DNA of 64,000 nucleotides from Amphiscolops sp. MND2022 (taxonomy: Eukaryota). The stretch lies in assembly GCA_964187785.1 (NCBI GenBank), contig OZ076410.1:38626001-38690000 (forward strand). The letters run 5' to 3'. The notes under the pieces are model-generated. The model did not search any database. It was not told where the DNA came from and worked only from the letters and a program-made list of their open reading frames with translations. The position numbers and the translations under genes are program-made. Shown here piece after piece: positions 8,899 through 60,744 of this stretch (positions are counted from its first letter, which is position 1; each line of letters begins with the position of its first letter).

Positions 8899-9380
8899 TC
8901 ATGTCAGACCATGAAAAACATGTCAGACCATGTCAGACAACAAACAGGCTGTGTTCCAATTCTTTCACTTTATCTGCTTCTCTCTTTGATGGGAGTTCAA
9001 ACTGGACATTTCCTCTTGTGGCTTTGAAAGCATACTTCAGTTGTTCCAACGGGTAGAGTTTGACGAAAATACTCTTTATATTTGAACACTCTCCGGTGCG
9101 TTTTTTCGAATTTATCTCAATCAAGATGTTTTTTGGTTTTCAAGCAGTATGATTGCTTGCTCAAGTAGGTCATTTTCTTGTTTCGAAAGAAGTTCACTTG
9201 ATCCATGTGTCCAATTGCGACATGATTCCCAGAACATTGAGTGATCAGTACCAACTTGCGTCAAACATGAGCTACAAAGTCTGTTCTTGTTGGCTGTTTT
9301 TAAATTCGGTCACTTATTTTTCCCTTCGAGTCTGTTTTCATTGACAACTCAACGAGTCTAGTGGAAAGATACTTTGAGAG

Positions 9381-10925
9381 TGTCATAACCTTCATCGTTT
9401 TCACTCTGTTCAGAATCTCCTGAACATTCTATTTGATGATTTGAAAGGTTATTTGTTGTCTTATTTAGTCTATGAAAATTCTCTCTTGAGTCTTGGACCC
9501 GCTGGCCAATTCTAATTTTATGCCGTCCATACGACCCTAGGTCCACAGTCTGGTCCATAGGGACGTTTCTACTCGGATGCCGTCCGTCTGACCGAAGGTC
9601 CAATTTCGCGTTTTTACGCTCCCTGTGGTTTATGATGACATTTTCAATGCTCGGTAGTATTTTCTCATCAATAGCAGAGTTGATTACCTCCATGATATGG
9701 GAATTAAGATCAGATTTCATTTCCTCCAATTTCCTTGACATCTGTGAAGAGATTTCTGAACTAATTGCTCTGCTAGTTTCTACTGTAATTTCACTATTCT
9801 CACTTAAATTTGTATTCAAAAGAGATCTATAGTTACTTTCTTCATGACTGAAACCTTGTTGCTGTCTACTTGACTCAGGGTCAATTTCTATTTGATCTAC
9901 CGTGTTCTGGTCCCTAGTATCGCTGTTTGTATAATTTCCGAGCATCACATCTAGATTTTCAATATCAGACATTATGTCAGATTGTCTTGAACGTTTCTCT
10001 CTTGCTTTTTGCTTTCTGGTTGAAGGCATTTTCAAGAAATGGATTTGATTTCAACAGTGAATTGATCAATAGTAACAAACCAAACAGTTTTGTATCGTAG
10101 CGTTTTCAATCAATGAATGAATCCCTCCTTTTACAAGTTCCGCGTATATATAGTTTGTACTGCATGACACGCAATCTTTTGCGTGTCAGGAACTAAATTT
10201 AGGGTGATATCATTCTAAATATAGCCCCGATTAGATTATTAGGTCACTAGTTCTAAAAATAGACTGAGGGTTTTGACATTACGTCACACAAATGAAGAGA
10301 TATAAATAGCATCAAACAAACAGTGGGTATCTTTACATGTATTCAGGTTAAAATCAACCTTTCATGCATTGGTAACATCAATATTCAATGAAATTCTAAA
10401 TTTGACCATGCGTCAGCATGACTGCAATGATAGACTGGTACTTTACTCTCATTGGTCAACAAGTACTTGTGACCACACGTCGATTTGACTGCAGTAGAGT
10501 ACTAGTTAATTAGCTAAGATAAGTGTTTTAAGGTACTCTTTAAACACCGTTTAACAGCACTTGAGTTACTTAGCTAAGTGTTGCGTCACTAACTAAGTGA
10601 TGTACTTTAGGTTCAGATTAATTGCAAGTAATTTCATCAATGGGAAATTCTAAATAGTAACAAATCAATAATAGCAATTGAATAAATGCACAGATTAAAT
10701 GCCGTCAGTTTGACCTTTGGTCTGAATAGTAATATCGAAATTGCATGTTTAGCGTTAATAATTCGGTCATTACATGCATGAAACAAATATTAAACTATCA
10801 GAATAGATGCTAAAATCCGTTTCAGAGTTTGTCCTAGATAGGTAGTACACCGGGGGCTGGTGGCGTCTCATTACCTTGTGGCATCATTTGGTATAGGATG
10901 CCGTCACAAGCGGCAGCTTGCGACA
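9381..10925 (-). repeat. 3' LTR of element A (carries the first about 218 gag codons and the tail of the accessory ORF)
   Basis: Direct repeat of 23983-25527; only two substitutions noticed by eye; ORF 9358-10035 is the LTR copy of the gag 5' end. Confidence 0.97.
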
Positions 10926-11658
10926 CTCCCCCCGGTACAAGTATGAACGTCCCTGCTTTCATACCTGCCTGGAATGCATCACGTCTAGCAATCCGCTGCT
11001 CATAAGTTTCTCCTGGAATGTGTGTCTGTTCAAGGTACCCCAATGTTATTTCTTCTTTAATGTCCGCAGATGATTTCCCACAGATCACGCAACCAGTTTG
11101 GGTCGTCTCATTCGGTTGGCCACAGCTTCCCCCGACACTAATTCCGAGGCCCGTGATGTGTGAGTTGCCATACCATGAGTCTGCCAAACCTTGAGGTTGC
11201 GTAGGCTGGTAGGCGTCAACTGAGGGTCCTTGGTCTTCTGGCGGAGGTGACCATGGGGAGTCCAGTATTGGGTTTAGCTGGCCACAATACGTTATTGGGT
11301 GGTCATCCGCATTTGAGCCATAAGAGGTTCTTGGGGGGCCCCCAACACACCAATCGAGCAAGTCTTGTGACGGGTCTGTAAAAGTGCTCACTGATCCAAT
11401 TAGATCGTCATCTGGTATGTTCAGGTCGTTCAAGCAATGAGCTAATTCTGTAATCATCGCCCGACCCGCGGTGAGTTGTGGAGGGAAAGGTATATTTTCA
11501 CGATAACAAGCAAGAACTTGTATGTCGTCGTCCGAATCTTGACCTTCAGGTCCGTCTGCAATGGACACTGAGTCCACTTCCATTTCTTCATCAGATGACT
11601 GGTACGAAAGGCTAACCAGAGGTCTATCGTGTTCCTCCAAAGAAAATTGTAGAGACAT
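10834..11658 (-). CDS. Accessory sense ORF of element A, 274 aa from MSLQF, unknown function
   Basis: Homologous along its length to 58336-59160 (MSLQF, SDxxxVLAC, CVxCGK, IKEExTLxYLExTH, LVPGGVSQA, PGVLPI); crosses the PPT and stops inside the LTR. Confidence 0.85.
   Translation of the reverse strand: MSLQFSLEEHDRPLVSLSYQSSDEEMEVDSVSIADGPEGQDSDDDIQVLACYRENIPFPPQLTAGRAMITELAHCLNDLNIPDDDLIGSVSTFTDPSQDLLDWCVGGPPRTSYGSNADDHPITYCGQLNPILDSPWSPPPEDQGPSVDAYQPTQPQGLADSWYGNSHITGLGISVGGSCGQPNETTQTGCVICGKSSADIKEEITLGYLEQTHIPGETYEQRIARRDAFQAGMKAGTFILVPGGVSQAAACDGILYQMMPQGNETPPAPGVLPI
10926..10933 (-). other. Polypurine tract GGGGGGAG of element A
   Basis: Abuts the TGTCGC start of the 3' LTR on the element strand; identical in element B. 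Confidence 0.85.
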
Positions 11659-13160: not shown

Positions 13161-16100
13161 ATGGATTCATATTCAGGAAGTGAGCCGCGCTTATTTATCT
13201 CATTTCATTTAGATAATGAGTTCAACGACCAACCTCTCCAATTGAATGCGGAGGAAGAAAGAATGGAGACCAGCGAGTCCTTTGTGACGGCATCCCCCCA
13301 TGCCGGAAGCCCCACTTTGTCGAGTGATCAAGGCTGCAATCAAAAGGAAGCTACTCTCCAAACGGATACCCTGGCCAGATCCGAGACTGCTACAGAGATG
13401 GATTTTACAATCATTCCCGAGGGCTCTCAGGCAAAAGAATCCGAACAAGTGCAGGAAAAGACCTAACTGTAATCCTGCAAACATCCTCAACTATGCAATC
13501 TGAACCGCCAACAACTCCACAAACCGTTGTGCCAACTGCCGGTGTGGAAAGCAGCAGCACTGACGAGAGTTGCGGGGCATACATAGCTCGAAAATGGCAA
13601 CAGTTAGGCGATTCTCACGAAGATCGTACCCAAGGTCCAAGTGACGGCAACTTGGGTAAGTGCAGTGAGAGCATCACATTAGAGTTGATGCCACAGCGAG
13701 GTGCACCAGACCACACTGAAACCGATTCGGACTCCGTATCAAGGGTCGCTTTCTTGGATTCCCCTGTCGCCCCTATCAAGAGCAACCTCAAATCGATGTA
13801 TAAGCCACCTGAGGCGAAGATTCAAAAACTCTGCGTCAAAATCGGTGAGACTAGAAAAGAGCTTTCCATATCTAATGCTGAGACAGAAGGTTCATCACAC
13901 TCTGAGGGTTGTCTTAGTTCGACGGATGAATTTGGATCAAACGACCCAATTGTCGCTAGTCCACGTGTCCCTTCCGATAGATTTGCCAGTGATACCGGGC
14001 ATGAGTCAGCTGGTCCTGCTGGGTCGACCGTTGCGGATGCTCTGTATGCTCCTTTGGACAAGAGTCGATTGAGAGTTAGTGACGCAGGTAGTGTTACATC
14101 CGTAGATTTTCCAGAGGAGGCGACGCGAAGTCCCCAACTTTCAGCAAGTAGCCGCATTATGATAAAAGAATGCTTTGAGGCCGTGACTCCAGTAATGCTA
14201 CCGCCGGGCCATACTACTTTAGCCCTTAATGAGAGTCAAGTCAGCAACATTCTGAGGGTCGTTGCTGACGAAGCAGTTAAGTCTTCTCTGAAGGCAATGG
14301 AGAACCTGGTTCATCAGACGTGCCGATTGAGCCTTGGAACGCCACAATTTCCTCCATCAGGCAGAGTCACCCCCAAGAGGTCTAGTTACCGGGCTCAAAG
14401 TCCAGGGGTGCAATCCGGTTTGTTATCTGGAGAGACTAGCGATACCAGTGGAGCCTTAAGGAGCGATGATGAGTTTGCCAGCATAGGGTATGCATATGAA
14501 CATTCTGATTTGAGAGTCAGCCTTTCGCTCCGCCGCCTGTTGGCCCCCCAGGGTGCAGTCAGACTGACCCAATGTCAATAGAAGGAGAACTCCGAGTTGA
14601 AAGTCCGGGGAACCAGACTCTTGCCGTGTTAAAAGCGGAAGCTATTGCTGAAAAGTCTAAGCCTACTCCTCGGAAAAAACCTCGCAAGAAGCCATCTCCC
14701 AGCAGGAGTGTAAATCGACATCGGGTGCCCCGTGCCTGCAAAATCATGAAGGAGGCGTATTTTAAAGGCATGGAGTGGACTAAAACTTTCGTGTCTGGGC
14801 CCATGGATCCCCGATGGAATCCGTACAAGATATACTGTCAAATTTGCAAGGGCAATGTATCAATTTATGGGCAGGGAGCACGAGAAATCCTCCGCCACCA
14901 TCGCACCGAAAAGCACCTAAGAAGGGACCAAAAGTGGCGATATCATCATCTTGCGACTGAAGATCCAGTAACCAAGATGGTGAAGCACCAAGTCCGCGGT
15001 GGGGACGGAAGGCTACTGACACCGTACGAGCTACAACTTGAACTGCCAAAATTCATTGGAGTCGAACTCGTCGACATTGGTGAAAAATTGCCATTTTATG
15101 ACGATTATCTGAGAGGAACGGATTACATGGCATCCTCTTCGGAGAACAGAGTGAAAGTGCAGGTTTCAGTCCTCGGCCATTATTTGCGCTCTTTTGGAGA
15201 CATCAGTGCTTTGAGAAACCTGTGGCGGGATATTGGAGTTGTAGTCAACCACCAGTCCTTATTTACAGACTTCGATTGGAGTAAAGAACGTTTATCTGTA
15301 AGTATCTTATTGCCGTCACGCTGACTTGTTGTCCGTTTCTGACCTTTGATTAACAATGTCTAAAAGTTAGTTGTTGTTCTTTCAGGTCCTGTTCCATCAC
15401 TTGTTCTTGCAAACCATTCGCGATATTGGCACACACGTGGTCGAGTCAGGAGAGTATTCCCTGGAATTCGTGAAGCAGGGAGTCTTTCTGCTTGTTTTCA
15501 TCCGGTTCTGGCGAAAAGACGAGTTATGCCGGGTCTTCCTGAAACGTACCGGACGAGTTCTCGGACAAAGCTCAGCTGAACTTAGTTTGATCAGTGACCT
15601 CATGGCCGTCTTCTCAACTACTCCCAATATCGTCAGCTGTTCTGGTGGTACCCTAGAAACGATTCAGATTCTAGACAATTCTCCATTCAGTCAACATGGG
15701 CTACAGCAACCACTCCAATTTGCTGAATTCTCCTTGGCCAGATTGATGCACAAAGAAAGCTATAGTGTTTTCGGACGGATAGATTTTCATTCTGTGCTGA
15801 AATATCTCATTGTCTTTCTTGGAGGATGCCTCGACTGTGATTGGACTCTCCTAACCCCCGTCCTTGCGAAGGTTTGTCATTTCCCCAGTCTGTATTGATT
15901 TGTTATGTCTTAACTGAGTTCTTAAGTCTAATAATTTTAGGCAGTACGGACTTGTCAAATCGAGCTGGAGACATTACCTACCCTGTGTCAGGAGCTTCTC
16001 GCCAATTGGACCAGCATTACTACTTATCTCAATACTCACGCTCCGCCCCATGAAATGATGGGGGTGAGGAAACAAGTAAGCTTCTGCCGTCATTGCGACC

Positions 16101-17427
16101 TCAAGTCCAAAATAAATTTCTCATGTTATTATCTTGTCTTTCAGCCGCAGAATCTTGAGAGAGCGATGCTCAGTGATGAATTGTTCCTCTGCCGGCTTGA
16201 GCTCTTCTATCGCCTCGTCAGGGATTGTGAGTGGTTCCTATTCATTGTTTATAGCGCTGATTTAGTTTGCGTAATTTTAATATTATACTTTATTTAGACA
16301 CTACTAGTTTCGTGCCACACTTGGTCGAACGACGTGATCACGGATTTCATATTTACCGACAGTTGTGTCAATTCCTTCTCAAGCTCGGCAGACGATGCAT
16401 CAAACCCAAAAGCCTTCCACCAGAAAGTGATTTGTCCGGAATCTTGAACATAGTTGTTTCTGATGCTAGAGCCCTTACAGTGACTGACTTTATTGCGCGA
16501 TCTAAACTGGAGCAACGACTGAACGTCGCTTGTAAGATCAAGGCAGAGAAAGAACTGAGTGACAGGAAGGGGAACCGTGCCAATTTGCCCAAACTTGTGA
16601 AGGAAGGAAAGGAAGAGTTTGGACGTCTTGCTCGCGCATATGTTGCTTATCTGTTCCACGCTGCTCAAAATAATTTGCAACTTACGTCCGACATTGTCAG
16701 AGGACTCGGATCTTTCGACCTGGACATCATGTTTCGTTCGCCACTCAGTCAGGCACTCTACTGTTTCAAGCTGCTCTTTCGCAGCTTCCAACTTCGTGGG
16801 TATTTCCAGCCTGCCGATGAATCTGTCTGCACTGAAGAATACCTATCCTTCTTGGACGAATTGAGGAAGGAGATGCCCGAGTTGGACCAGCCCAGGGTTA
16901 TAATCATTGATGCTGTTACCTTCATATTGCGACATGATGCCTTAAAGTCCCGGCCTCATCTCGCGCGTATTTTCAAATTGAGCTGTTTGTGCCTCGACGA
17001 AGATTACACAATTATGCCCTCAGTGAAGTTTGGACCAGTCCGGACTGATGATCCGAAAAGTAAACTGATTGACACCATCCTTCCAGTGCAATCCTTTTTC
17101 ATAAATGTGGGCCGCAGTATCGACGCCTTGACTACGTCTTCTTCGATCTCTGAGTTCCTGGCTTTTGAGCCTACGTTTGGAAGTTCCGCATTCTCCGACA
17201 CATACAGTCCATGGGACGGCTTGGATTATTTTGACCGTTCCCACATTCTCTCTGTCTTGAAACCGAAGGCTGTCCCTCAGAAGACTGATTCTCGAAGGAT
17301 ACAATTCAAGAATCCAAAAGGTAGGAGCGTTACCAAGAGTCTTCCTGCCTCCAGTTTGAACAATTCGCCAGTTAAGCGGCAATCTGATAGTGAATTGCCA
17401 TCCCCTTCATTTACTAAAGACACTTAA
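13161..17427 (+). CDS. Antisense spliced gene of element A; exons 13161-15297, 15386-15871, 15941-16075, 16145-16226, 16298-17427; about 1320 aa; zinc finger plus putative inactive hAT-transposase-like body
   Basis: GT-AG introns of 88, 69, 69 and 71 bp join the ORFs in frame; exons match those of element B; two single-base frameshifts in exon 1 (about 13457 and 14510); finger at 14836-14916. Confidence 0.85.
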
Positions 17428-17654
17428 TTGTACTATATGTACATTTGTTTTTAGTTGTATTTATGTATCTTTCGTTTGTCTGTCAGTCTTGAGTTTTTTA
17501 TTTTATCATTATTTGCAGTCTGTTTGTACAGTTGTGTCGTTATGATGTCTGTATTTGATCTGTTATTGTGGACTACAAGTCAGTCGAGGCCCATAAAAAG
17601 ATACTTGTAGAGTCAAAAGGTGTTGAGTCGGGCCAGTGAATTTACATGTTCTAA

Positions 17655-20600
17655 CTAGTATCTGTATTCGTCAGTAAAGTTGGGGGTAGGATTGGGACGT
17701 AGGTTATATCTCCCTCCCCTAGGACTTTCATTTTCTACAACACAATCATCAGTTTCCTCAATTAATACATCGGGCACGGTTGTATCGTTCCCCCCAGAAG
17801 TTGAAAATTCTGAATTTTCATCTCTAGGTAGGTCCTGATTTGTCAATTCATCGTTTTCAAATTCGGTACTTTGTTGCCGTCTATCGGACTGACGGTCTTC
17901 ATTGTGTGCATTTCTTGAGTACTGCTCCGTATTATCAGCCTCAGTATTTGATTGCCGTCGCGCGGACCGAAGGTCCGCTTCGTTTATTTCGTTTGAACGT
18001 GAGTCACTATCAGTATCATCAGCGTGAGCGGCGTCAGTATTTGTTTGCCGTCGCGTGGACCGTAGGTCCAAATCTGTGATTATGGCATCCTGTTCATCGG
18101 AATTGGTAGGGAGTTCATTAGTAACAGTCCGATTTTCAGAATTAGGAGGGAAATCGTCAAAATTGGTTTCCCATGAAATGATGTACAGATCATCTCGTGG
18201 AATAATAATTTCATCGTCTGCTTGTAAATTTCCTTCGGGACGAATGTCTGGTGGGGTAGTATTTGGAGTGTATTTTCTAAGGCGTATTCGGTGTAATAGC
18301 TGCGTTTTGTTAGTACTAAGTTTACGAACAATATAGTTGTCGTTAGGTAAAACTTTTTCAATGACGTACGGTCCGATCCAACGAAATTCACGAAAAGGAA
18401 TTTTAGAGCCTTGATTGTCAGCTAGAGGTTGTAAAATGAAGCAAAAATCTCCTTGTTGTAGAGGAGCTGCTTTAGCCTTTCGGTCATAATATTCCTTGTA
18501 CTTTAAATATGATTGCATGATGTTTTTCTTTGTTTGATCGATTAATATTTGCGTGCGTCTTTGAAATTCTTCAGCAAAATCAGTCGTTGGAGTGATCTTT
18601 GGGTTAGGGTTTAATCCTAACCGATGGTCTAAGATATTATAAGGTACTCTTCCGTGAAAAATTCGGGTGGGTTCACATCCAAGACTTGAATGATAGGTTG
18701 TGTTATAATTAAGGACGGCCAATGGGAGATATTTGTGCCATTGACGCCTGTATTCGCCTGATGCCATTTTAAGGTTGCCCTTAAGGCTGGCATGAGTGCG
18801 TTCTAGTTTGCCTATCGTCTGAGGATGCTTTGTGGTCGCGCACCGAAGGTGAATTCCTAAAATTTTGGTAATTTCATCTAGGAGTTTGGACGTAAAGGCA
18901 GTGCCTTTGTCGGTGATGAGCGTAGTCGGCAAATAGGAATGTTTTGTCATGATATCAATAATGACCTTTGCCGTATTGATGGCCGAAGCGTCCGTTACTG
19001 GTTAGGCAAAAAGATATCTCGAAAACACGTCCAGAGCCGTTATGACATTTTCATAACCTCCGCTGGGGGGTAAGTTGGGCAGAATGTCAATTTGTAAGGC
19101 ATCCTCTGGGCCAAAATCCCATTCAGGTAAGTTGAGTAATTCAGGTGTTATGGATGCGTTATTGATTCTTTTGTCTTTTATACAAATTTCGCACCCTTGG
19201 ACCCACTTTTTGACAATTTTGGCAATTCCAGGAAAGTAGTATTTTCGTCGAATTTCGTGCAGCATTTTTGAGATTCCCGGGTGTTTGTTCGCGGAACCAT
19301 GTAGTGATTGAAGTAATTCTGTGACTAGATGTTTCGGTAATAATGCCTGGCGGAATTGGACACTGCCTGTTTCATCGTAGTAGTCTCTGAAAATGATGTC
19401 ATCATGTACGGACAGACGGTCAATTTGACGGCAGTAATGTCGGTAGCGCGAATCTTGCTGTAAGATGGTTTCAGAGTATTCTTCTTTTTGCAATTTGAGT
19501 CGTAATTGATGTAAGATAAGATCGTTCTGTTGTTCTATAGCCATGGTGGTTGGTTTTGCCAGTTTTTGTATATTTTGAGTTTGGAATTGTGTATTATCAT
19601 GAGTGCTAAGATGATCTAACAAAATATCAGGAGGTTGATTCATGGGGTTTGACCTGGCGCCTTGTTTGCGTTTCCAGATTTGTTCTTCTGTTTCTTCATC
19701 ATCGTCCGTATAGAAGATCTGTTCCTCTTCAGTAACTCCCGCTGATTGGACGTTGAGTTCGATTGGTGTGGTGGAAATATCTTCTCGTATCCGGAGTATG
19801 AGTTTTTCTTTGGGACAGATTTCTAGACGTGACAAGTAGTCAGCGGCAGTATTGTTTTTGCCAGGTATATGGGCTATTGTGAAACTGAATTGCATAACGT
19901 AGTCACACGCGTTCCACAATGTGGGTGGAATGATTTTTGTTTGAAAAAAGCGAGTGACTGACTTGTTGTCTGTTAGTATTATCACCGGTTTCGGGGTCCC
20001 CCAGAAGATATGGCCAAACTCTTTGAATGCAAAGAATATTGCTAGGAATTCTTTGGCATAAATGGACATCTTCAGTTGGGCTGGACTAAAGGTCTTGGAT
20101 CCATATGCTACAGGTGCGAAGGCTTTTCGCGTCGAAGTATATTTTTCCATCGGATCGTCCTCGATGAGAACTGCATAACCTGCTGCCGAAAAACTAGCGT
20201 CTGTCATCAGGGCTATCTGTTTATCGGGAAGAGGTTGTTTGAGTGCCAGTTCACAACATCGGTCAAGAGCTTTGTTGATCTCGGTGAATTTTTCTAACAG
20301 ATCGGGTGTCACCATGACTTTGGCATCACTTTTCAATAACTTGAAAAACGGTGTGAGTTTTTCTGAGAGTCTAGGAATGTAGTTACGGTAGTAGTTCAAG
20401 AATCCCAAGTATCTTTGAAGGGCTTTCTTGGATTTAGGGAATTTGGTCTTCTCCAAGAAATTCTGGACCCTGGGTCGTTGTGGCCGCACCCCTTCAGGAG
20501 TGATGGTACGTCCCAGGAAGTCGATTTCCTTGGCTCCGAAATGGCACTTGTGCATCGTTAGTTTGAGGCCAGCGGTCCTGATGCACTGGAACGTTGCTCG

Positions 20601-22844
20601 AAGGTTGTTGATGAGCTGAGTAGCGTCGTTTGCAGCTATCCCAATATCGTCTACGTACTGAGCGCATTGGTCAGCTTTTATCACTTTATCCAGATATTCG
20701 CGCATAAAGCTCGAAAATGCGGACAGCGCTCTGCTTAGACCTTGGGCAAGTCGGCGATAGGCAAATGTTCTGCTGGCAAAATTGAATGCCAGCATCTCGA
20801 TTGACCTCTGGTCAGCCATCTGAAGGCAGTGGTATGCTTGAGAACAATCAAGTTTGCAAAATAATCGTTTACCTGCCATGTGCTGCGCAGCATCCGTTAG
20901 TGTGCTGACAGGATGGTTGTTGTTGATGTAATCGTCAGAAATCAGGTTGTTGATCTTTCGGAGGTCAACCAGGAGTCGAAGTTTGCCGTTGGGTTTTTTC
21001 TGGGCAAAGATGGGACTTGCATATTTGGAAAATGGGAGAGTTGTTATAATCCCATATCGATGTAGTAGTGCTAGTTCTACAAGGATATCTTCTTTGAGGT
21101 TGATAGGAGTAGGTAAGCTTTGACTATAGGCAGGAGAGTCATCTTTAGGGGTCAAAGTGACCTTGAAGTCCTCGTTCATACCTATGTCAAAGCGGTGTCG
21201 TGCAAAAATATCGTGAAATTCAACAAGTAATTCTTCAATTTGAGCAATTTCGGCTGGGTTTAGTGTCGAGTCTGTCCAGTCGAAGTTAGCAAGGAATTGC
21301 TTCCGCGATTCGAGGTCATCGAGAGGGTTGAGTTTCTCTAAATCCTGGAGATTTCGTAGTTCCCTAAGGATTCTCTGTTGTATTGGTGTGTGAGTTTGGG
21401 GATCTCCTGGTTCTTCTGGAGTAGGGAACCAATAGTTCTCACTATCATCGCTAGTTTTCGGAGATTTGATCAGGCTACTGGCATAATAGGCAGCATTTTC
21501 CGGGTTATCCTTCAAAAGGTGCCAAGTGGTCACAGGATCAATGGGTTTGACGTATTTCATCTGCTCTGGTGTGAGGACAGAGAAATTGGCAATGTGCGAA
21601 CCTCTTTTGAGGGTGTACGGTTGGTCAGTGAAGTTGTTGACATGGATTGATACCTGTCCTTGGGTCAGTGTGACTAGAGCGGCGCAGAAGGTTATATCAC
21701 CATCTTCTGCAAGGTCGCTGCTCGGTTGAAGAATTCCAGTGACGTTTGTGTCGTCATATAGTTGTGAGAACATGGAAACCATATGTCTGTCGTTGGGGGG
21801 AATAGTTATATCCTCCCGTGCACAGATAGGTTCCATGACATTAGTGTACTTGTGGTCAGCTGTTTTCAATTGCATGGAGAAGAAAGGGAAGTTTAAAACT
21901 CCTTGACGCATGTCCAGTATGGTATTGTTCCGTTGCAGGAACGAGAGACTAATTAACGGACTTGTGAGTTTTTCCATAACGATGAAGATCTCGTGGAAAT
22001 CGATGTCCCCGACCTCGAATTTGAGTTCAACGGTGCTCTTTGGAGTCTCCAGCTGTCCATTGGCTACCATAATCTGGAAGTTGGGTGCTGGGCCCTCTTT
22101 AATTATTGACTGAGGGGCTAACAATCGGATTTTACGTAGATCAGCTTCTGGGATAGCGCTAGATAGGGCTCCCGTGTCTACAAGGCCATCTAATGTTAGT
22201 TCGCCAAAATCCATCGGGAAGTAGAGCATCCGTCGTTTGTATTTGAGTCCCAAATTGGTCGTCAACGGGACGTAGTCAGGTTCACCGTTTCGTGAGATCA
22301 GCGTATTCACAAAGCGCTCTTCCACTGTTGCCGTCAATGTGACCAAAGGTCCATTGTGTGGAAGTTGTTCGGATATTGCCTCCTGGATTGGTGAATTGGT
22401 GTTAATCCACACATTTTGCCAGGGGTCAACAGAGGCCGTGGATAGTTTTGTGTTCAGCATCTGATCAATGTGGGGTTGATCATGTTCGATATCTGCAATG
22501 TTTTTGGTAAAGTTGTTGTAGAAGTGTAGCTGATGTTGGTTGTAGATTTGAATGTCCCAATAGGGGTCTAAACCGAAGTCCGGGTCTAGATAATATGGGT
22601 TGTAGTTATCGATTAGGGGAAGGGGGCGAATGGTCGTAGTATTAGAGTGCTGTCTGTCGGACTGAAGGTCCGGTTTGTGTAAGTGAGTAGGCAAATGCTT
22701 CACCTGCTGCTGCCAGTCAGCTGATGAAGTTCCTTTAATTGAAGAGTAATATTCAGTATAATATATAGTAGGAGGATCAGATATTATATATTGTCTGATA
22801 CGTAATTTTTCATTAATATGGAGTCGTGGCGAATCTAGTTTTTT
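17655..22844 (-). CDS. pol: Pol of element A (PR-RT-RNase H-integrase) with one nonsense codon at 19002-19004
   Basis: LVDTGA (protease), QYVDDIGI (RT), LMTDAS/KEFLAI/TDNKS (RNase H), HPGISKM...CEIC and D-D-E core (integrase), GPY motif; TAA where B has TAC in YLFAYPV; the frame is open from the slippery site. Confidence 0.95.
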
Positions 22845-24637
22845 GAGTTTTTAAGGATAGAAGTTGTGGGTTTATTGGTAGGGTCATCACGACTACTGGT
22901 CGTGTCGTCATCCTTTGGACTATCCAATTTGAGGTTTTTGGGCTTGAGGTGGGCTCCAGCGCCTTTCCAACATCTCTCCGCCGGGTGATTGGTTTTGTCA
23001 CAAGTCGGGCACTTTGGGTACTCTTTTTTGGTACTCGAGCCTTCATTGCGTTTTTGCTCTTCCTTTCGTTTTAGTTTTCGGCAATCGTCTTTGACATGTC
23101 CAGGTTTTTTGCAGTAGTTGCAAGTTATTCCTGGGTCAATGCCTGATGAAAGGAGTCCTTGTCCCGGTCTTGTGGCTGTCGGGGCTGTAGACATTGTGGG
23201 AACGGGAATGTCGTCACCTTCCTCAAGTCCATTCAACTCCAGTTCTCGTTCGAGATGAGTGACAATTTCTTCATAGGTGGCATTCTCTAATCGCGCCATG
23301 TTGACTGAACGTTTGAGTTTCGGTGGGAGTTTTGCGTATAGCAGACTGTCAATCATGGCTTGTGCGTGCTCGCCAAAGGCTTTTTCGGCGCCCTGATTGA
23401 GTTCCTCGAGAAAATCGGGCAATTTCATTGTGTTTGGGTCAAATACCAATTTGTGCCATTTATGTTTGGCAGTTGCCTGGGATTCAGGTTTGACATATTT
23501 CCTATGAAACACAGCTAGTACGTCTTCTAAGGTTTGTCTATTTGCTGAACTGATGTTGCGGAAGGTTTGCAGGGCGTTTTTGCGCAACAGTGAATGAAAG
23601 TGATTAATTTTCATTGCTTCCGTCATTTCTGGTTGCATCTTTATCACCGTGTGAAAAAGGTCTTCAAACAGTTCAAATTTTTCAGATTTGCCGTCAAATG
23701 TGAGTGTGGCAGTATTGACTGGTCGTACCATCAGTGTTTGTGCTGATGATTTGTTGTTCATTCCCATAATGACATCGGCAAGTCTGTTTATGGGGTCTAA
23801 AGGTGTTTGGGGCTGCATTTCCCGGTCATTGATAGGGTTTGAGGGAATTTGTGCCGGGAGAGTGGTATCTAATGTGTCATCGTTGACACATTGTTGATGG
23901 GGAATGTTGTTTCTGGACTGCGTGGGACGTCCGGTCAGAAATTCAGGGACTACATGTGGAGTAAGGTTGGCTCCTGTCACCATGTCATAACCTTCATCGT
24001 TTTCACTCTGTTCAGAATCTCCTGAACATTCTATTTGATGATTTGAAAGGTTATTTGTTGTCTTATTTAGTCTATGAAAATTCTCTCTTGAGTCTTGGAC
24101 CCGCTGGCCAATTCTAATTTTATGCCGTCCATACGACCCTAGGTCCACAGTCTGGTCCATAGGGACGTTTCTACTCGGATGCCGTCCGTCTGACCGAAGG
24201 TCCAATTTCGCGTTTTTACGCTCCCTGTGGTTTATGATGACATTTTCAATGCTCGGTAGTATTTTCTCATCAATAGCAGAGTTGATTACCTCCATGATAT
24301 GGGAATTAAGATCAGATTTCATTTCCTCCAATTTCCTTGACATCTGTGAAGAGATTTCTGAACTAATTGCTCTGCTAGTTTCTACTGTAATTTCACTATT
24401 CTCACTTAAATTTGTATTCAAAAGAGATCTATAGTTACTTTCTTCATGACTGAAACCTTGTTGCTGTCTACTTGACTCAGGGTCAATTTCTATTTGATCT
24501 ACCGTGTTCTGGTCCCTAGTATCGCTGTTTGTATAATTTCCGAGCATCACATCTAGATTTTCAATATCAGACATTATGTCAGATTGTCTTGAACGTTTCT
24601 CTCTTGCTTTTTGCTTTCTGGTTGAAGGCATTTTCAA
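22835..24637 (-). CDS. gag: Gag of element A, 600 aa, two zinc knuckles
   Basis: CNYCKKPGHVKDDC and CPTCDKTNHPAERC; capsid-like core LTFDGKSEKFELFEDLF; starts inside the 5' LTR. Confidence 0.93.
   Translation of the reverse strand: MKMPSTRKQKAREKRSRQSDIMSDIENLDVMLGNYTNSDTRDQNTVDQIEIDPESSRQQQGFSHEESNYRSLLNTNLSENSEITVETSRAISSEISSQMSRKLEEMKSDLNSHIMEVINSAIDEKILPSIENVIINHRERKNAKLDLRSDGRHPSRNVPMDQTVDLGSYGRHKIRIGQRVQDSRENFHRLNKTTNNLSNHQIECSGDSEQSENDEGYDMVTGANLTPHVVPEFLTGRPTQSRNNIPHQQCVNDDTLDTTLPAQIPSNPINDREMQPQTPLDPINRLADVIMGMNNKSSAQTLMVRPVNTATLTFDGKSEKFELFEDLFHTVIKMQPEMTEAMKINHFHSLLRKNALQTFRNISSANRQTLEDVLAVFHRKYVKPESQATAKHKWHKLVFDPNTMKLPDFLEELNQGAEKAFGEHAQAMIDSLLYAKLPPKLKRSVNMARLENATYEEIVTHLERELELNGLEEGDDIPVPTMSTAPTATRPGQGLLSSGIDPGITCNYCKKPGHVKDDCRKLKRKEEQKRNEGSSTKKEYPKCPTCDKTNHPAERCWKGAGAHLKPKNLKLDSPKDDDTTSSRDDPTNKPTTSILKNSKN
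22838..22844 (-). promoter_or_regulatory. -1 ribosomal frameshift heptamer A_AAA_AAC directly before the gag stop
   Basis: TCA AAA AAC TAG; the -1 frame is open into pol; same site in B. Confidence 0.75.
23967..23982 (-). other. Primer-binding site TGGTGACAGGAGCCAA of element A
   Basis: Begins TGG immediately after the LTR-terminal CA; identical 16-mer in B; resembles tRNA-Leu-type PBS (TGGTGTCAGGAG), primer unverified. Confidence 0.85.
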
Positions 24638-25527
24638 GAAATGGATTTGATTTCAACAGTGAATTGATCAATAGTAACAAACCAAACAGTTTTGTATCGT
24701 AGCGTTTTCAATCAATGAATGAATCCCTCCTTTTACAAGTTCCGCGTATATATAGTTTGTACTGCATGACACGCAATATTTTGCGTGTCAGGAACTAAAT
24801 TTAGGGTGATATCATTCTAAATATAGCCCCGATTAGATTATTAGGTCACTAGTTCTAAAAATAGACTGAGGGTTTTGACATTACGTTACACAAATGAAGA
24901 GATATAAATAGCATCAAACAAACAGTGGGTATCTTTACATGTATTCAGGTTAAAATCAACCTTTCATGCATTGGTAACATCAATATTCAATGAAATTCTA
25001 AATTTGACCATGCGTCAGCATGACTGCAATGATAGACTGGTACTTTACTCTCATTGGTCAACAAGTACTTGTGACCACACGTCGATTTGACTGCAGTAGA
25101 GTACTAGTTAATTAGCTAAGATAAGTGTTTTAAGGTACTCTTTAAACACCGTTTAACAGCACTTGAGTTACTTAGCTAAGTGTTGCGTCACTAACTAAGT
25201 GATGTACTTTAGGTTCAGATTAATTGCAAGTAATTTCATCAATGGGAAATTCTAAATAGTAACAAATCAATAATAGCAATTGAATAAATGCACAGATTAA
25301 ATGCCGTCAGTTTGACCTTTGGTCTGAATAGTAATATCGAAATTGCATGTTTAGCGTTAATAATTCGGTCATTACATGCATGAAACAAATATTAAACTAT
25401 CAGAATAGATGCTAAAATCCGTTTCAGAGTTTGTCCTAGATAGGTAGTACACCGGGGGCTGGTGGCGTCTCATTACCTTGTGGCATCATTTGGTATAGGA
25501 TGCCGTCACAAGCGGCAGCTTGCGACA
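23983..25527 (-). repeat. 5' LTR of element A
   Basis: Repeat of 9381-10925; TG...CA; flanked by TSD and PBS. Confidence 0.97.
24747..24776 (-). promoter_or_regulatory. Putative LTR core promoter TTGCGTGTCATG-N10-TATATATA
   Basis: Same motif and spacing in the LTR of B and in the solo LTR at 29231-29257. Confidence 0.6.
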
Positions 25528-26530
25528 GAGAGAGACACTTTAGGTGAGCCGACATAGAAGAGATAGTTGGAAAATTGAATTTTTTCTCACCGCTCTGTAT
25601 TTTCCTACGAAGTGTTTTCCATCCGTTTATTGTAGCAATGTTTCTCCATGTCTTTCCAAGCCAATTTGTATGATATATGCTTGCACACCAGTAAGTATTT
25701 CTTCAGCTCCAATTTTCTGTCCAAATTCAGTTTTTGGGATTTCCAGAGATGCTGACAATCTTTCAATTTCTTGTCCAGAAGAGTTTCATTCACCACGTGA
25801 CTTGTATGACGAGGAACTGCCGATCCACTCCATGTTCATTGTGCCTCTTCACTGGCAGTAATTACATGGGTTCCCGAGTCAGTTGCTGAGTGTCAAAGGG
25901 GCGATTATAAATTGATGAGTGGGCTGTAATGTTTATTATGAAGTCGTGCCAAATAACCGTTCTAGCACTGCCCAGCGTTGGTTTCTTCTAACAAACATCA
26001 GTTGGAATTCAACAGTTATGTAACGGCATTTGGGTCTTCTCATGAGTCTTCTATGAGATGTAACCCGGTAATTGTAGTCAGGCTCTTTATCCTTCTCACT
26101 CGACCTGAAAAGAAATTGACCGCTAGAATCAAGAAACTAGCAGCAAATATATGCATAACTTGCATTGGAGAAACCTGAAAACACACGTGATGAACTCATA
26201 TATTTTTTCATTCAATAGGTTTATTGAAGTTCTTTTGAAATTTTTTGTTGAGTTAGAGCTACTTGTCCTCAGTAGTTCAATCTCAATTTCGTCGATTATA
26301 AATAATGTTGCTTTCTTGCTGAAAACCTTGGATTTTTATTTCAGTCAAAATGTTGTCAGGGTTTTCGTTTCGCAATTTTACAATGAATCTTTTACGCCAA
26401 GTATCCATTTTACTTCCGCATCAAAGCCTCATATTTTTTGGCCCCATAAATTTGGCCAAAAAATTGGCAATGGTCTCGTGAACGTTCCTATAAATTAAGA
26501 TCAATTCGAAGCTCTGGAACTTGTTTTGCG

Positions 26531-44569: not shown

Positions 44570-46249
44570 TGTCGCAGGCTCCCGCCTGCGATGGGAACTG
44601 GTATCAGGTTGCCCCTGATACCTGCGACAATTTACCCGTCCCCCCAGGAGTGCTGCTGATCTAAGCCGCAAAGACCATCAATACTTGAAAACATTATTCA
44701 TTGAAGGATTTGAACTCATTATTAGCTCAAATTTTTATCTATGTACAATTACGGACCTTAAGTCCATTTTCCCTAGTAAGACTTATAATCGGAGTTAGAC
44801 TCTCAATGTAGTACATTTGCGTGAAATCTAGTAATTTTGCTATCTTATGGATCTACCATATTCAATGCATATATTTAGTCATGTAAACCAGTAGTCAATT
44901 ATAGTGAATGTAATCAATTGCGTGCAATTAAAATTAACAAAGCAGCTATATAGTTGAAAGGAAACGCGTTCGAATTGTCCCCCGCGTTGGTCAGTTCGGA
45001 CGCGTTGTCCGCCAAATTATTCAACCAATCAGCTGTGAGCACTAGTGCTTTCGTTCACTCATTCGCCGCAATTCACGTCTACACGTATTAGTGTGGACCA
45101 CCAGTCCAAGTGCTATACTCTATTTACATTAGTTTGTTATATAAACAAATAGAGTTCTCTGGAGCGGTGTTATGTTGCTAATTAGACATAAAAGACTTAC
45201 CGCCATTTAGCCCCCCCCCCACATTAGCTTTCACTCCCTTTCGTAGAATTAAGCTATTTTTAGAGTGATGTCACTCTTCTAATAATATCCCCAGGGTGAT
45301 TTTGCCCGCATTTGATGCTATTAATATACCAAACCCTAGAAAACGTCACTATGACGTCAGGTACAGTAATCTAATTTTATCCCTGTGATGATCATAATTT
45401 TGCGTGTCATGAGGCGCTGATTATAAATAGTGGGGACCCGAGGTCTCCAGGATCACAATCAACAGTCTGTTTTGACCACGAATACACACACAATCCATTC
45501 CAAGTGAACTCTCAACTTTATTCAATCTTGACGCATAGTCAATTTGCCATATCTTGCTACTCTACTTAACTATCAATCATTCATTTGTTTCCTCGTTCTT
45601 TTAAATATACTGTAGAAGCTCTAATATACTCTTAGTTGAGCTCAAGTCTCTTCAATGCCTTCTACCAGAAAACAAAGTGCTAGAGAGAGACGCTCTAGGC
45701 AAATAGACATAATGTCTGATGCTGAGAACTTAGATGTAATGCTTGGATCATATCCTAGAAATGACTTAGAAAATGATTTTGATAGAAACGATGAAATGGA
45801 CCTAGAGTCTAATAGGACAAGAGTTGACTTAGCACAAAATAGTGAGGATTTTAGGTCACTTTTGAACTCCAACAGTAGAGAGAACAGTGAATCAGCTGTT
45901 GAAACTATGAGGCTTGTTAACTCTGAGGTCACTAAGAAAATTGATGAACTGAGAAGGGAACTTAATTCTCAGTTAGTAGATGCTATAAACTCAGCAATCA
46001 CTGAGAAGGTATTGCCTGATATCAGAAATATGGTGACCAGTCAAAATTCAGTATTTCGGGAAGAAGTGGACCACAGGTCCAGAGGACCAAACAGGACCTC
46101 CGAAGAATTAGGTAGTAGAAACGCTTGGAAAAGCAATTCAAAGCCTACTTTGGCTTCCAGTAGTCGACAAGACAATCTCAGGAGAAACTCAGATGTTTCT
46201 CAGTCCAGTGATGATGATCACGAAGAAATGATAACTAACAGTCATGACA
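44570..46249 (+). repeat. 5' LTR of element B
   Basis: Repeat of 59066-60744; roughly 15-20 substitutions plus one poly-C indel by eye. Confidence 0.97.
45400..45429 (+). promoter_or_regulatory. Putative LTR core promoter TTGCGTGTCATG-N10-TATAAATA
   Basis: Motif and spacing shared with the A LTR. Confidence 0.6.
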
Positions 46250-47370
46250 TGGTGACAGGAGCCAAACCTACCCCTCGTACGGTTCCTGAATTCCTTACTG
46301 GACGGCCCATGCATGCCCGAGAAGAAACACACAATTCCAATTCCCCACGAAATCAATCCTCAGAAAATGTCCCTCCAGTCCAAGAGACAAACATCAACGA
46401 TAACTCAGACCCCATTAGGCGTCTTGCGGATGTGCTGGTTGGAATGAACAGCAAATCATCAGCGCAGACACTGATGGTAAGACCCGTCAGCACCACCACA
46501 CTGACGTTTGATGGCAAATCGGAGAAATTTGAACTCTTTGAAGATCTTTTCCATACTATGGTAAAGATGCAACCCGAAATGACGGAAACCATGAAAATCA
46601 ACCACTTCCACTCTCTGTTGAGGAAAAACGCCCTGCAAACTTTCTGCAACATCAATACCGCTAATAGGCAGACTCTGGAAGATGTACTGGCAGTCTTTCG
46701 ACGCAAGTACGTCAAACCAGAATCTCAGGCAACAGCCAAACACAAATGGCACAAACTAGTGTTTGACCCAAATACTATGAAACTGCCTGATTTCCTTGAA
46801 GAATTAAATCAGGGTGCGGAAAAGGCATTTGGAGAACACGTTCAGGCCATGATAGACAGCCTATTGTACGCCAAATTGCCTCCAAAACTCAAACGGTCTG
46901 TCAATATGGCTAGGCTTGAAAATGCGTCGTATGAGGAAATAGTCACTCATCTAGAACGCCAGCTTGAACTTAACGGACTTGAGGAAGGTGACGACATTCC
47001 AGTACCTACAATGTCCACTGCCCCTACAGCAACACGACCGGGAACTGGCCTCCTTTCATCGGGTATTGACCCCAATATCACCTGCAATTATTGCAAAAAA
47101 CCCGGCCACGTCAAGGAAGACTGCCGAAAACTCAAACGAAAGGAGGAACTAAGGCGCAACGAAGGGCAGGATACTAAAAAAGAATATCCCAAATGTCCAA
47201 CTTGCGGCAAAACAAATCACCCGGCGGAACGTTGTTGGAAAGGCGCCGGAGCCCACCTCAAGCCCAAAAACCTCAAACTGGAGGACGCCAAACAGGACGA
47301 AGCGTCCCCCGGACAAAATGAGACCAAGGACAAACAGTCCACCTCTATATTAAAAAACTCAAAAAACTAG
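45655..47370 (+). CDS. gag: Gag of element B, 571 aa, two zinc knuckles
   Basis: CNYCKKPGHVKEDC and CPTCGKTNHPAERC; core nearly identical to A gag; ATG lies in the 5' LTR. Confidence 0.93.
   Translation: MPSTRKQSARERRSRQIDIMSDAENLDVMLGSYPRNDLENDFDRNDEMDLESNRTRVDLAQNSEDFRSLLNSNSRENSESAVETMRLVNSEVTKKIDELRRELNSQLVDAINSAITEKVLPDIRNMVTSQNSVFREEVDHRSRGPNRTSEELGSRNAWKSNSKPTLASSSRQDNLRRNSDVSQSSDDDHEEMITNSHDMVTGAKPTPRTVPEFLTGRPMHAREETHNSNSPRNQSSENVPPVQETNINDNSDPIRRLADVLVGMNSKSSAQTLMVRPVSTTTLTFDGKSEKFELFEDLFHTMVKMQPEMTETMKINHFHSLLRKNALQTFCNINTANRQTLEDVLAVFRRKYVKPESQATAKHKWHKLVFDPNTMKLPDFLEELNQGAEKAFGEHVQAMIDSLLYAKLPPKLKRSVNMARLENASYEEIVTHLERQLELNGLEEGDDIPVPTMSTAPTATRPGTGLLSSGIDPNITCNYCKKPGHVKEDCRKLKRKEELRRNEGQDTKKEYPKCPTCGKTNHPAERCWKGAGAHLKPKNLKLEDAKQDEASPGQNETKDKQSTSILKNSKN
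46250..46265 (+). other. Primer-binding site TGGTGACAGGAGCCAA of element B
   Basis: Follows the LTR-terminal CA; encodes MVTGA in the gag frame. Confidence 0.85.
47361..47367 (+). promoter_or_regulatory. -1 frameshift heptamer A_AAA_AAC (a second one at 47352-47358)
   Basis: TTA AAA AAC TCA AAA AAC TAG; pol is in the -1 frame. Confidence 0.75.
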
Positions 47371-58335: not shown

Positions 58336-59160
58336 ATGTCTCTGCAATTTGCCGTTGACGACTTGATTAGCCCTTTGGTCAGTTTGTCTTACCTGTCCTC
58401 AGGGGAGGAAGACATGGAATTGGATGATCCACAAGCGGCCGCAGATGAGGAGGGGTACGATAGCGACATCGAAGTCCTGGCTTGCTTCAGCGAGTCACAT
58501 TCTGTGAAGCCTATGGGCGTGGCTGCACGTACAATGACAACTGAAACCTACAACGAGGATGACGATCTAACACTGGTCGAAGAACTCTACGGGCGAGCAT
58601 GCAAGGTGGACTCAGAGCCAACCGATGATCTAGTCGACTTAGTACTGGGCAATGGACCCCCTAATCATAGTATGATCCCTGTAGGCGAGAAACCGATAGC
58701 CAGGTGTGCTCAAATGCAACCAATTCCCGACACCCCACGGTCTCCACCTGCCCACGAGAGAGGCCCCACCTCCACCTTTGACAACACCCAGTGGGCTAAC
58801 TTTCAAACTGCCTACGAGCCCGAGCATGCCCACATAACGGGGATAGCTGTAAGCGCAAGCGGTGTCTGCGGGACCTCAAATTTCGTGGCCAGAGGAGATT
58901 GCGTGGTGTGTGGGAAAGACTTTGGGTCTATCAAAGAGGAAGTGACATTAGACTACCTGGAGCGGACTCACTTATCCGGCGAATCTTATCTAACACAAGT
59001 AAGGAAGAGGAATGCGTTTGAGGCAGGCATGGCCGCCGGCTCATTTCTTCTCGTACCGGGGGGAGTGTCGCAGGCTCCCGCCTGCGATGGGAACTGGTAT
59101 CAGGTTGCCCCTGTTACCTGCGACAATTTACCCGTCCCCCCAGGAGTGCTGCCGATCTAA
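58336..59160 (+). CDS. Accessory sense ORF of element B, 274 aa, unknown function
   Basis: Homolog of 10834-11658; crosses the PPT and ends 95 nt inside the 3' LTR. Confidence 0.85.
   Translation: MSLQFAVDDLISPLVSLSYLSSGEEDMELDDPQAAADEEGYDSDIEVLACFSESHSVKPMGVAARTMTTETYNEDDDLTLVEELYGRACKVDSEPTDDLVDLVLGNGPPNHSMIPVGEKPIARCAQMQPIPDTPRSPPAHERGPTSTFDNTQWANFQTAYEPEHAHITGIAVSASGVCGTSNFVARGDCVVCGKDFGSIKEEVTLDYLERTHLSGESYLTQVRKRNAFEAGMAAGSFLLVPGGVSQAPACDGNWYQVAPVTCDNLPVPPGVLPI
59058..59065 (+). other. Polypurine tract GGGGGGAG of element B
   Basis: Directly precedes TGTCGC of the 3' LTR. Confidence 0.85.
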
Positions 59161-60744
59161 GCCGCAAAGACCATCAATACTTGAAAACATTATTCATTGA
59201 ACGATTTGAACTCATTATTAGCTCAAACTTTTATCTATGTACAATTACGGACCTTAAGTCCATTTTCCCTAGTAAGACTTATAATCGGAGTTAGACTCTC
59301 AATGTAGTACATTTGCGTGAAATCTAGTAATTTTGCTATCTTATGGATCTACCATATTCAATGCATATATTTAGTCATGTAAACCAGTAGTCAATTATAG
59401 TGAATGTAATCAATTGCGTGCAATTAAAATTAACAAAGCAGCTATATAGTTGAAAGGAAACGCGTTCGAATTGTCCCCCGCGTTGGTCAGTTCGGACGCG
59501 TTGTCCGCCAAATTATTCAACCAATCAGCTGTGAGCACTCGTGCTTTCTTTCACTCATTCGCCGCAATTCACGTCTACACGTATTAGTGTGGACCACCAG
59601 TCCAAGTGCTATACTCTATTTACATTAGTATGTTATATAAACAAATAGAGTTCTCTGGAGCGGTGTTATGTTGCTAATTAGACATAAAAGGCTTACCGCC
59701 ATTTAACCCCCCCCCACATTAGCTTTCACTCCCTTTCGTAGAATTAAGCTATTTTTAGAGTGATGTCACTGTTCTAATAATATCCCCAGGGTGATTTTGC
59801 CCGCATTTGATGCTATTAATATACCAAACCCTAGAAAACGTCACTATGACGTCAGGTACAGTAATCTAATTTTATCCCTGTGATGATCATAATTTTGCGT
59901 GTCATGAGGCGCTGATTATAAATAGTGGGGACCCGAGGTCTCCAGGATCACAATCAACAATCTGTTTTGACCACGAATACACACACAATCCATTCCAAGT
60001 GAACTCTCAACTTTATTCAATCTTGACGCAGAGTCAATTTGCCATATCTTGCTACTCTACTTAACTATCAATCATTCATTTGTTTCCTCGTTCTTTTAAA
60101 TATACTGTAGAAGCTCTAATATACTCTTAGTTGAGCTCAAGTCTCTTCAATGCCTTCTACCAGAAAACAAAGAGCTAAAGAGAGACGCTCTAGGCAAATA
60201 GACATAATGTCTGATGCTGAGAACTTAGATGTAATGCTTGGATCATATCCTAGAAATGACTTAGAAAATGATTTTGATAGAAACGATGAAATGGACCTAG
60301 AGTCTAATAGGACAAGAGTTGACTTAGCACAAAATAGTGAGGATTTTAGGTCACTTTTGAACTCCAACAGTAGAGAGAACAGTGAATCAGCTGTTGAAAC
60401 TATGAGGCTTGTTAACTCTGAGGTCACTAAGAAAATTGATGAACTGAGAAGGGAACTTAATTCTCAGTTAGTAGATGCTATAAACTCAGCAATCACTGAG
60501 AAGGTATTGCCTGATATCAGAAATATGGTGACCAGTCAAAATTCAGTATTTCGGAAAGAAGTGGACCACAGGTCCAGAGGACCAAACAGGACCTCCGAAG
60601 AATTAGGTAGTAGAAACGCTTGGAAAAGCAATTCAAAGCCTACTTTGGCTTCCAGTAGTCGACAAGACTATCTCAGGAGAAACTCAGATGTTTCTCAGTC
60701 CAGTGATGATGATCACGAAGAAATGATGACTAACAGTCATGACA
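59066..60744 (+). repeat. 3' LTR of element B (carries the first about 198 gag codons)
   Basis: Repeat of 44570-46249; ORF 60150-60758 is the LTR copy of the gag 5' end. Confidence 0.97.

Follow-up and report, generated by a model that had tools for sequence, protein, structure and literature searches.

Two full-length LTR elements, related to each other and oppositely oriented, lie in the analysed DNA (64 000 nucleotides, referred to below as the window): element A on the minus strand and element B on the plus strand. Coordinates are given in Table 1. The LTRs of element A differ at two positions and those of element B at 18; the TSD of element B is GCTAT. Both elements are young Ty3/gypsy retrotransposons. 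Direct TG...CA LTRs with a short TSD, a primer-binding site (PBS) and a polypurine tract (PPT) were present, the TSD being 5 bp in A, in B and in nine of ten further elements. In both elements pol follows the Ty3/gypsy order of protease, RT, RNase H and integrase, with a dUTPase between protease and RT; pol of element B is split over two frames. The best matches of the RT–RNase H region were similar in strength (E of 1e-28 to 1e-23) and included Ty3 Gag-Pol. Gag has a capsid fold and a CCHC nucleocapsid: Pfam matched DUF1759 and CCHC, with weak matches to Retrotrans_gag and Ty3_capsid, and the Gag model best matched the capsids of PNMA2 and dArc (E of 0.004–0.03, none at 0.001 or better, probability of about 1), so that the capsid fold lies nearest to these gypsy-derived proteins. 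The heptamer A-AAA-AAC precedes the gag stop codon in both elements and is a candidate −1 frameshift site. Assignment to Ty1/copia was rejected, as the integrase does not lie upstream of RT. BEL/Pao elements encode gag and pol in a single ORF and have three zinc knuckles along with enzymes of the Pao type; only the DUF1759 match pointed to this group, and it was rejected on the separate gag and pol frames, the two knuckles and the gypsy-type RT, RNase H and integrase.

Table 1. Positions of the features of elements A and B in the window.
Feature	Position	Strand	Description
5' LTR, A	23983..25527	-	1545 bp, TG...CA; 99.87% identity with 3' LTR
3' LTR, A	9381..10925	-	1545 bp
TSD, A	25528..25532, partner 9376-9380	-	CTCTC, 5 bp
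Polypurine tract, A	10926..10937	-	
TATA motif, A	24747..24754	-	123 nt upstream of gag ATG
Initiator-like TCATTC motif, A	24716..24723	-	About 30 nt after TATA; predicted start near 24720
gag ORF, A	22835..24631	-	598 aa; in-LTR part followed by capsid domain and two CCHC knuckles
In-LTR gag, A	23984..24631	-	216 codons; basic N-terminus, long helix, disordered acidic linker
gag codons 1-32, A	24536..24631	-	Most conserved, A/B 84% aa identity; U3/leader types switch here between subfamilies
Predicted long amphipathic helix, A	24203..24403	-	Residues about 77-143
Junction ATG, A	23981..23983	-	A is the last LTR base, TG are PBS bases 1-2
PBS, A	23971..23982	-	12 nt complementary to tRNA-Leu(CAG) 3' end; no spacer; reads Met-Val-Thr-Gly
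pol, A	17655..22850	-	Protease, dUTPase, RT, RNase H, integrase; a single stop codon near 19002 breaks the frame
Antisense accessory ORFs, A	13328..17427	+	No Pfam match above cut-off
PPT-crossing ORF, A	10834..11658	-	274 aa; ends 30 codons inside U3
Truncated gag copy, 3' LTR of A	9358..10029	-	216 codons + 7 flank-encoded; 223 aa
5' LTR, B	44570..46249	+	1680 bp; TATA at 45422, gag ATG at 45655
gag ORF, B	45655..47370	+	198 codons within LTR
PBS, B	46250..46261	+	12 nt identical to PBS of A
PPT-crossing ORF, B	58336..59160	+	274 aa
3' LTR, B	59066..60744	+	Truncated gag copy from 60150

The original prediction was that gag initiates inside the LTR, about 650 nt (A) and about 595 nt (B) upstream of the LTR end. 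From the first in-frame ATG the distances were measured as 649 and 595 nt, equal to 216 and 198 codons plus 1 nt. The start had been set at 24637 in element A, where the codon is TTG, and was moved to the ATG two codons downstream. At the junction of LTR and PBS both elements read GACA/TGGTGACAGGAGCC (the slash marks the LTR end), translated in the gag frame as D-M-V-T-G-A, and the frame runs on to the DUF1759 and CCHC matches; the PBS is gag coding sequence, as predicted. The ATG that had been placed inside the PBS proved to straddle the LTR end (A/TG), and it arises automatically because the LTR-terminal CA meets the TGG of the PBS without a spacer. Truncated gag copies were expected in the 3' LTRs and were seen in both elements, that of element B encoding 202 residues including those from the flank.

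The PBS was compared with the tRNAs of the host, and its first 12 bases were complementary at 12 of 12 positions to the 3' end of tRNA-Leu(CAG) plus CCA. A pattern search allowing up to one mismatch returned 864 tRNA-like 3' ends in the genome, and ARAGORN called tRNA-Leu(CAG) at one of six scanned loci. Conservation of the PBS across families stops where the tRNA match stops, and self-priming of the Tf1 type, in which the PBS pairs with the 5' end of the transcript itself and not with a tRNA, was set aside on this and on the 12-nt match. The predicted RNA fold around the PBS was not distinctive (z of −1.75). Silent divergence is minimal in the 30 codons after the junction (0.15–0.21 versus 0.4–0.6 overall, the search patterns fixing the first 5–9 of these codons), as an overlapping RNA signal would give.

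Selection on the in-LTR codons was analysed in three families using copies that were open from the family start to the end of gag (21, 12 and 20 copies out of 30 per family; all others were broken). Maximum-likelihood dN/dS inside the LTR was 0.18 for the family of element A (family A) and 0.14 and 0.20 for the other two; the values after the PBS were 0.13, 0.08 and 0.08, and shifted frames gave 1.6–3.0. The corresponding Nei–Gojobori (NG86) estimates in the LTR were 0.31 (0.25–0.38), 0.15 (0.10–0.20) and 0.16 (0.10–0.24), family A first. Alignment bias is excluded in family 3 because all 20 copies have 103 codons. In family A, 52 close copies of 98 were aligned as nucleotides without regard to frame, and diversity over codons 33–216 was 0.03, 0.04 and 0.11 at codon positions 1, 2 and 3, respectively. 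Shared in-LTR variants comprised 61 non-synonymous and 88 synonymous changes versus 85 and 57 among singletons (p = 0.0015), and the in-LTR frame showed no shared frameshift, compared with four shared non-triplet indels in U3 plus leader of 23 copies. Constraint peaks at codons 1–32 and in the long helix and is weak in the linkers (window dN up to 0.34). Codons 1–32, with two non-synonymous and 14 synonymous shared variants, combine high dS with very low dN, so that the constraint there lies on the protein and not on the RNA. The five coding differences between the two LTRs of element B are all non-synonymous, which points to drift after insertion. Judged by these substitution patterns, the in-LTR codons are under purifying selection at the protein level; neutral evolution of the upstream frame, which had been named as part of the outcome that would count against the prediction, does not describe them.

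AlphaFold2 modelled the in-LTR segment of element A as a short basic helix (residues 4–29) and a long helix (residues 83–143; pLDDT 89–98 over residues 81–140) with disorder outside the two; the long helix was also helical in a second structure model, that of Gag. Its hydrophobic period is 3.67, and a window of 3.5–3.67 could be obtained in all 21 families, in a scan that chooses the best window and has no null control. Complex prediction for self-association of the helix gave a score of 0.02 and a mark of 0.32, which speak neither for nor against it. Pfam gave nothing above cut-off for the in-LTR segment, and a fold search of its model in BFVD gave no match at an E of 0.001 or better. By position and anatomy, a matrix-like role in assembly or targeting is most likely. 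The in-LTR frame might instead encode a separate product, spliced or cleaved off, its continuity with gag being incidental. The long low-confidence linker between helix and capsid would suit such a product, as would the occurrence of a promoter plus ORF in 3' and solo LTRs, and cleavage of an N-terminal domain by the protease is normal in Gag. We consider this improbable, given that the frame is continuous with the capsid in families with as little as 22% Gag identity, that in-LTR and post-PBS classes (assigned with coarse thresholds) agree in 98 of 98 copies of family A, and that the coding differences between the LTRs of element B are those predicted by drift after insertion.

For the promoter survey, each of 33 U3 types was represented by a single copy. 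A TATA motif lies 100–320 nt upstream of the in-LTR ATG in 27 of the 33 (0 of 33 in a control window), six types having none. No ATG fell in the final 80 nt before the start, where shuffled sequence would give 33; defining the start as the first Met by itself removes about a third of these. Between the position 30 nt past the TATA motif and the start, 20 of the 27 TATA-bearing types are free of ATG and seven have one to three. A conserved poly(A) hexamer of the AATAAA type was not found in the leader or the in-LTR frame of 26 representatives. The TATA spacing, together with a shift in diversity that 23 copies show 750 nt before the junction (described below), predicts a start of transcription near 24720 in element A. 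U3 would then end and R begin at this point, with about 89 nt of leader and about 740 nt of R-U5.

Another explanation places the Gag start at the junction AUG or beyond it and ascribes the open upstream frame to chance or to demands on the RNA or DNA. The sequence context of the junction AUG is favourable, with a G in position +4 and, in many cases, a purine in position −3 (at the in-LTR start, 49 of 85 copies have T or C in this position), and 12 of 150 profile hits, gene calls on fragments, are annotated as starting at the junction Met. It leaves unaccounted for the third-position bias and a dN/dS far below 1 that occur solely in the gag frame, the protein constraint on codons 1–32, and the promoter and AUG-free leader that stand upstream of the in-LTR ATG; we regard it as very improbable. 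The junction AUG could also serve beside the upstream one, a full Gag and a short capsid–nucleocapsid Gag both being made, the latter via an internal transcript or an IRES, in the manner of Ty1i RNA, from which yeast makes p22. This proposal is compatible with translation from the in-LTR AUG; in Ty1 an internal transcript encodes an inhibitory short Gag, according to the available part of the source (bioRxiv 10.1101/176248). The junction Met is invariant in all 21 aligned Gags, but this is forced by the meeting of CA and TGG and does not call for selection on initiation. Element A has six in-frame ATGs between the gag start and the junction ATG. Of 20 sampled junctions at which the PBS is not preceded by A, two belong to otherwise open gags with Leu as the junction codon, changes which may postdate insertion. 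The second, shorter Gag that had been suggested thus found no support, and we think it unlikely, if less so than a start at the junction alone.

The layout is lineage-wide. Junctions of an LTR-terminal CA with the tRNA-Leu PBS number 7,449 in the genome. The 16-mer of the GACA type occurs 3,430 times versus once for its control, and the variants with H as prefix (HACA type) 4,019 times versus none, so the junction is not due to chance; matches to the PBS without a preceding A number 290 versus 59 for the control. The first 30 GACA-type and the first 30 HACA-type junctions on contig C1 were sampled. The MVTG frame extends upstream without a stop for 80 codons or more in 46 of these 60 (the other two frames in one of 120), is decayed or non-coding in the remaining 14, and is the longest downstream frame in 55. 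Ten divergent elements with RT identity to A down to 59% were analysed over their full length: nine have an LTR pair of 1,083–2,238 bp, a 5-bp TSD and 103–215 in-LTR gag codons, and one has no LTR pair within 20 kb. Over the lineage about 100–220 gag codons lie in the LTR. Gags with 22–79% identity to that of A all (21 of 21) have Met1, M-V-T-G and an Arg near residue 5. The N-terminal segment is otherwise poorly alignable across distant families, which have little in common there beyond Met1, this Arg and a helix; homology of these segments among distant families is not proven by such alignments. Outside this genome, homologues were found among ENA proteins and in two metagenome contigs (181 candidate stretches), one of which carries a further family with the same gag-in-LTR layout. 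The motif MVT/S/A-G/E is present in 114 of 120 database homologues; of 150 profile hits, which include many fragments, 36 have it.

Taken together, A and B are very probably young Ty3/gypsy elements of a lineage in which gag runs from 100–220 codons inside the LTR through a tRNA-Leu PBS, the in-LTR part being a likely N-terminal Gag domain translated from the first AUG of a transcript with a predicted start about 90 nt upstream. Transcription would start about 30 nt past the TATA motif and thereby place the domain in R/U5. Ribosomes would scan the AUG-free leader, cross the PBS and translate capsid and nucleocapsid, and a −1 frameshift would take them into pol. After packaging, this RNA would be primed at the PBS by tRNA-Leu(CAG). 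R and U5 of both new LTRs come from the 5' end of the RNA, and minus-strand strong-stop DNA, predicted to be unusually long at about 740 nt, would carry the domain into both. The 3' copy would be intact at insertion because selection acts on the translated 5' copy. During reverse transcription the in-LTR domain would be copied first and the capsid region last.

Diversity along the 5' part of the element was fitted with two free change-points. In 23 copies of A's type the limits of a high-diversity block were −750 and −5 from the junction, with diversity of 0.066 in the block versus 0.033 in U3 and 0.023 after the PBS. Third-position diversity in the block was 0.130 (0.107–0.154), compared with 0.033 at all U3 sites and 0.055 at post-PBS third positions. 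These limits coincide with the predicted start and the PBS. Three other groups fit less cleanly (−760/+200, −560/−5 and a different block at −955/−735). In family 3, 11 of 253 pairs pass a filter for a foreign block in the LTR; one lineage occurs in all of them, the left edge lies at −630 to −680 and the filter itself in part imposes the right edge. In family 2 some copies change partners at the PBS, for example L127 and L034 with 53–71% identity before it and 90–97% after it. Correlations of silent-site distances drop across the PBS in family 3 (0.44–0.66 versus 0.69–0.87 within the post-PBS part), partially in family A and not in family 2.

These observations suggest exchange of the R-U5 region as a Gag-domain cassette: first-strand transfer between co-packaged RNAs would swap the N-terminal domain at the PBS, because reverse transcription copies the in-LTR domain at one end of its path and the capsid at the other. 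Such built-in shuffling would give Gag a fast-diversifying tip, and the promoter-plus-domain units in thousands of 3' and solo LTRs might become joined to host sequence or affect full Gag. We put this forward tentatively, as a possibility with the greater weight against it; a raised mutation rate of strong-stop DNA would fit too. The PBS was not singled out as a recombination site by linkage or tree tests: r2 across it was 0.055 (0.019 for free recombination) with a comparable dip at +525 to +675, and AU tests rejected shared trees for all segment pairs, the two post-PBS halves included. At the level of coarse classes, the U3 class differs in 52 of the 98 family-A copies in which the in-LTR and post-PBS classes are concordant. 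The U3/leader swaps break within gag codons 1–32; they may derive from a single event, and the R border is not fixed by them.

In Ty1 about 13 gag codons lie in the LTR (consistent with the positions cited next), the order is PR-IN-RT, the primer is tRNAiMet and the frameshift is +1. According to the available parts of the sources, the PBS of Ty1 from Saccharomyces cerevisiae lies within the GAG ORF, with the acceptor-stem PBS at RNA nucleotides 94–104 (PMC4974528), and transcription starts at LTR nucleotide +238 (PMC4974528; bioRxiv 10.1101/176248); these positions put the start of Ty1 gag inside the LTR and cis signals within coding sequence. The novelty of a departure from the usual placement of gag after the PBS had therefore been overstated. 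The present elements share with Ty1 a gag start in the 5' LTR and a PBS that is read as gag codons; unlike Ty1, the present elements have 103–217 in-LTR codons forming a domain, the order PR-dUTPase-RT-RH-IN, tRNA-Leu(CAG) as the primer and a candidate −1 site. The available text of two studies describes a dUTPase between protease and RT in the bdelloid elements Juno, Vesta and TelKA, planarian Burro and basidiomycete elements (PMC5408684, PMC6431247), which share with A and B the order PR-dUTPase-RT-RH-IN, a GPY/F-type tail and extra ORFs. In those portions no gag start inside the LTR is described for them, and that of PMC5408684 never mentions PBS or primer binding; what is available of PMC6451197 has no bearing on the layout. 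A gypsy element with gag starting in the LTR was not found in the literature searched, a search by literal phrase matching that covered few subscription papers and so does not show absence from print.

The principle is known from Ty1; new are the domain-sized scale (about ten times that of Ty1), the other superfamily, the ORF crossing the PPT (described below) and a two- to fourfold higher silent diversity in the predicted strong-stop segment. Annotation and dating methods treat LTRs as non-coding; here about 300–650 nt of every LTR appear to be coding and selected. In a lineage with about 7,400 junctions in one genome, gag would be mis-called if started at the PBS, and every 3' or solo LTR would be a promoter-plus-ORF unit reading into host DNA. 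With ribosomes and tRNA primer on the same bases, a switch between translation and packaging becomes testable beyond yeast Ty1, in a Ty3/gypsy element of a large genome. The raised silent diversity from the predicted start to the PBS may allow first-strand transfer to be read from the sequences of natural copies.

The HIV nef, MMTV sag and foamy virus bet ORFs overlap the 3' LTR, in U3 only, and to our knowledge none of them places a Gag domain in R/U5. A second ORF of the present elements resembles them in overlapping the 3' LTR, a likeness of position. It runs in the sense direction over the PPT into U3 in A, B and seven further elements (256–274 aa where intact), ends about 30 codons into U3 in all carriers but one, and is missing from four elements of the MVNTR and MNPD families. 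It has no Pfam match, and omega estimated from three divergent sequences was about 0.04–0.06. In the subclade that carries it, both primer junctions are, as judged from the reading frames, coding.

Elements A and B, the two full-length Ty3/gypsy LTR retrotransposons of the window, each carry a 274-aa ORF that traverses the polypurine tract (PPT) and stops 30 codons into U3. Its product is acidic and has a CxxC motif, and a Pfam search with it returned no matches. Sequence comparison shows that the ORF is kept at the protein level; it was found in the MPSTR and MPTTR families of the lineage and is missing from the MVNTR and MNPD families. The overlap with U3 resembles a nef-type overlap.

Element A (9381-25527) is a mosaic when compared with two pairs of other copies (L079 with L080, and L267 with L268). 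Its gag-pol and the majority of its accessory region are similar to one subfamily, and its PPT-crossing ORF, U3 and leader are similar to a different one, with the switch falling within gag codons 1-32. A single event possibly produced this mosaic. The dUTPase in pol lies between protease and RT, a position seldom seen in retrotransposons (PMC5408684). Between pol and the 3' LTR, both elements carry antisense accessory ORFs, for which Pfam gave nothing over the cut-off; by eye, one has a C2H2/BED-like finger pattern. Antisense ORFs of at least 250 aa were present in eight of ten further full elements.

Features located in the window
Feature	Position	Strand	Element or source
274-aa PPT-crossing ORF	10834-11658	-	Element A
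274-aa PPT-crossing ORF	58336-59160	+	Element B
Pol with dUTPase	19002-22850	-	Element A
Antisense accessory ORFs	13328-17427	+	Element A
Antisense accessory ORFs	52521-56903	-	Element B
Sequence similar to both flanks of element B	38275-39408		Window

The last sequence listed recurs on either side of element B (43967-44573 and 60750-61233). This suggests that element B was inserted into another repeat, of which this sequence is a second copy.

In U3 of most families, a GTGTCA(T/C) motif lies ~15-25 nt upstream of the TATA box. It is repeated across the MPSTR and MPTTR families although their U3 sequences are unrelated, and is a candidate transcription-factor site. In 27 Y-type copies, a hyper-diverse block (0.165 versus 0.03) at -955 to -735 from the junction lies at the 3' end of U3 and ends at the predicted transcription start.

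Host contig C8 (G000) carries tRNA-Leu-like 3' ends in a tandem array at ~35.59-35.64 Mb, spaced by ~296 bp, which may be a large primer source. In a separate repeat (L283, L284, L287 and L289) the PBS 12-mer is preceded by AAGT, not CA, and one copy extends further, being complementary to the entire tRNA-Leu and its CCA.

At one host locus (L026; G000:C10:23868878-23872309) a family-A LTR end lies directly upstream of where gag begins in an MNPD-family element, so that two in-LTR Gag domains are joined in frame over 332 codons. A metagenome contig (L273) represents a further family with an identical junction motif. It holds, in series, pol, an ORF like the PPT-crossing one, an LTR-like region and gag, in a tandem or circularly permuted arrangement.
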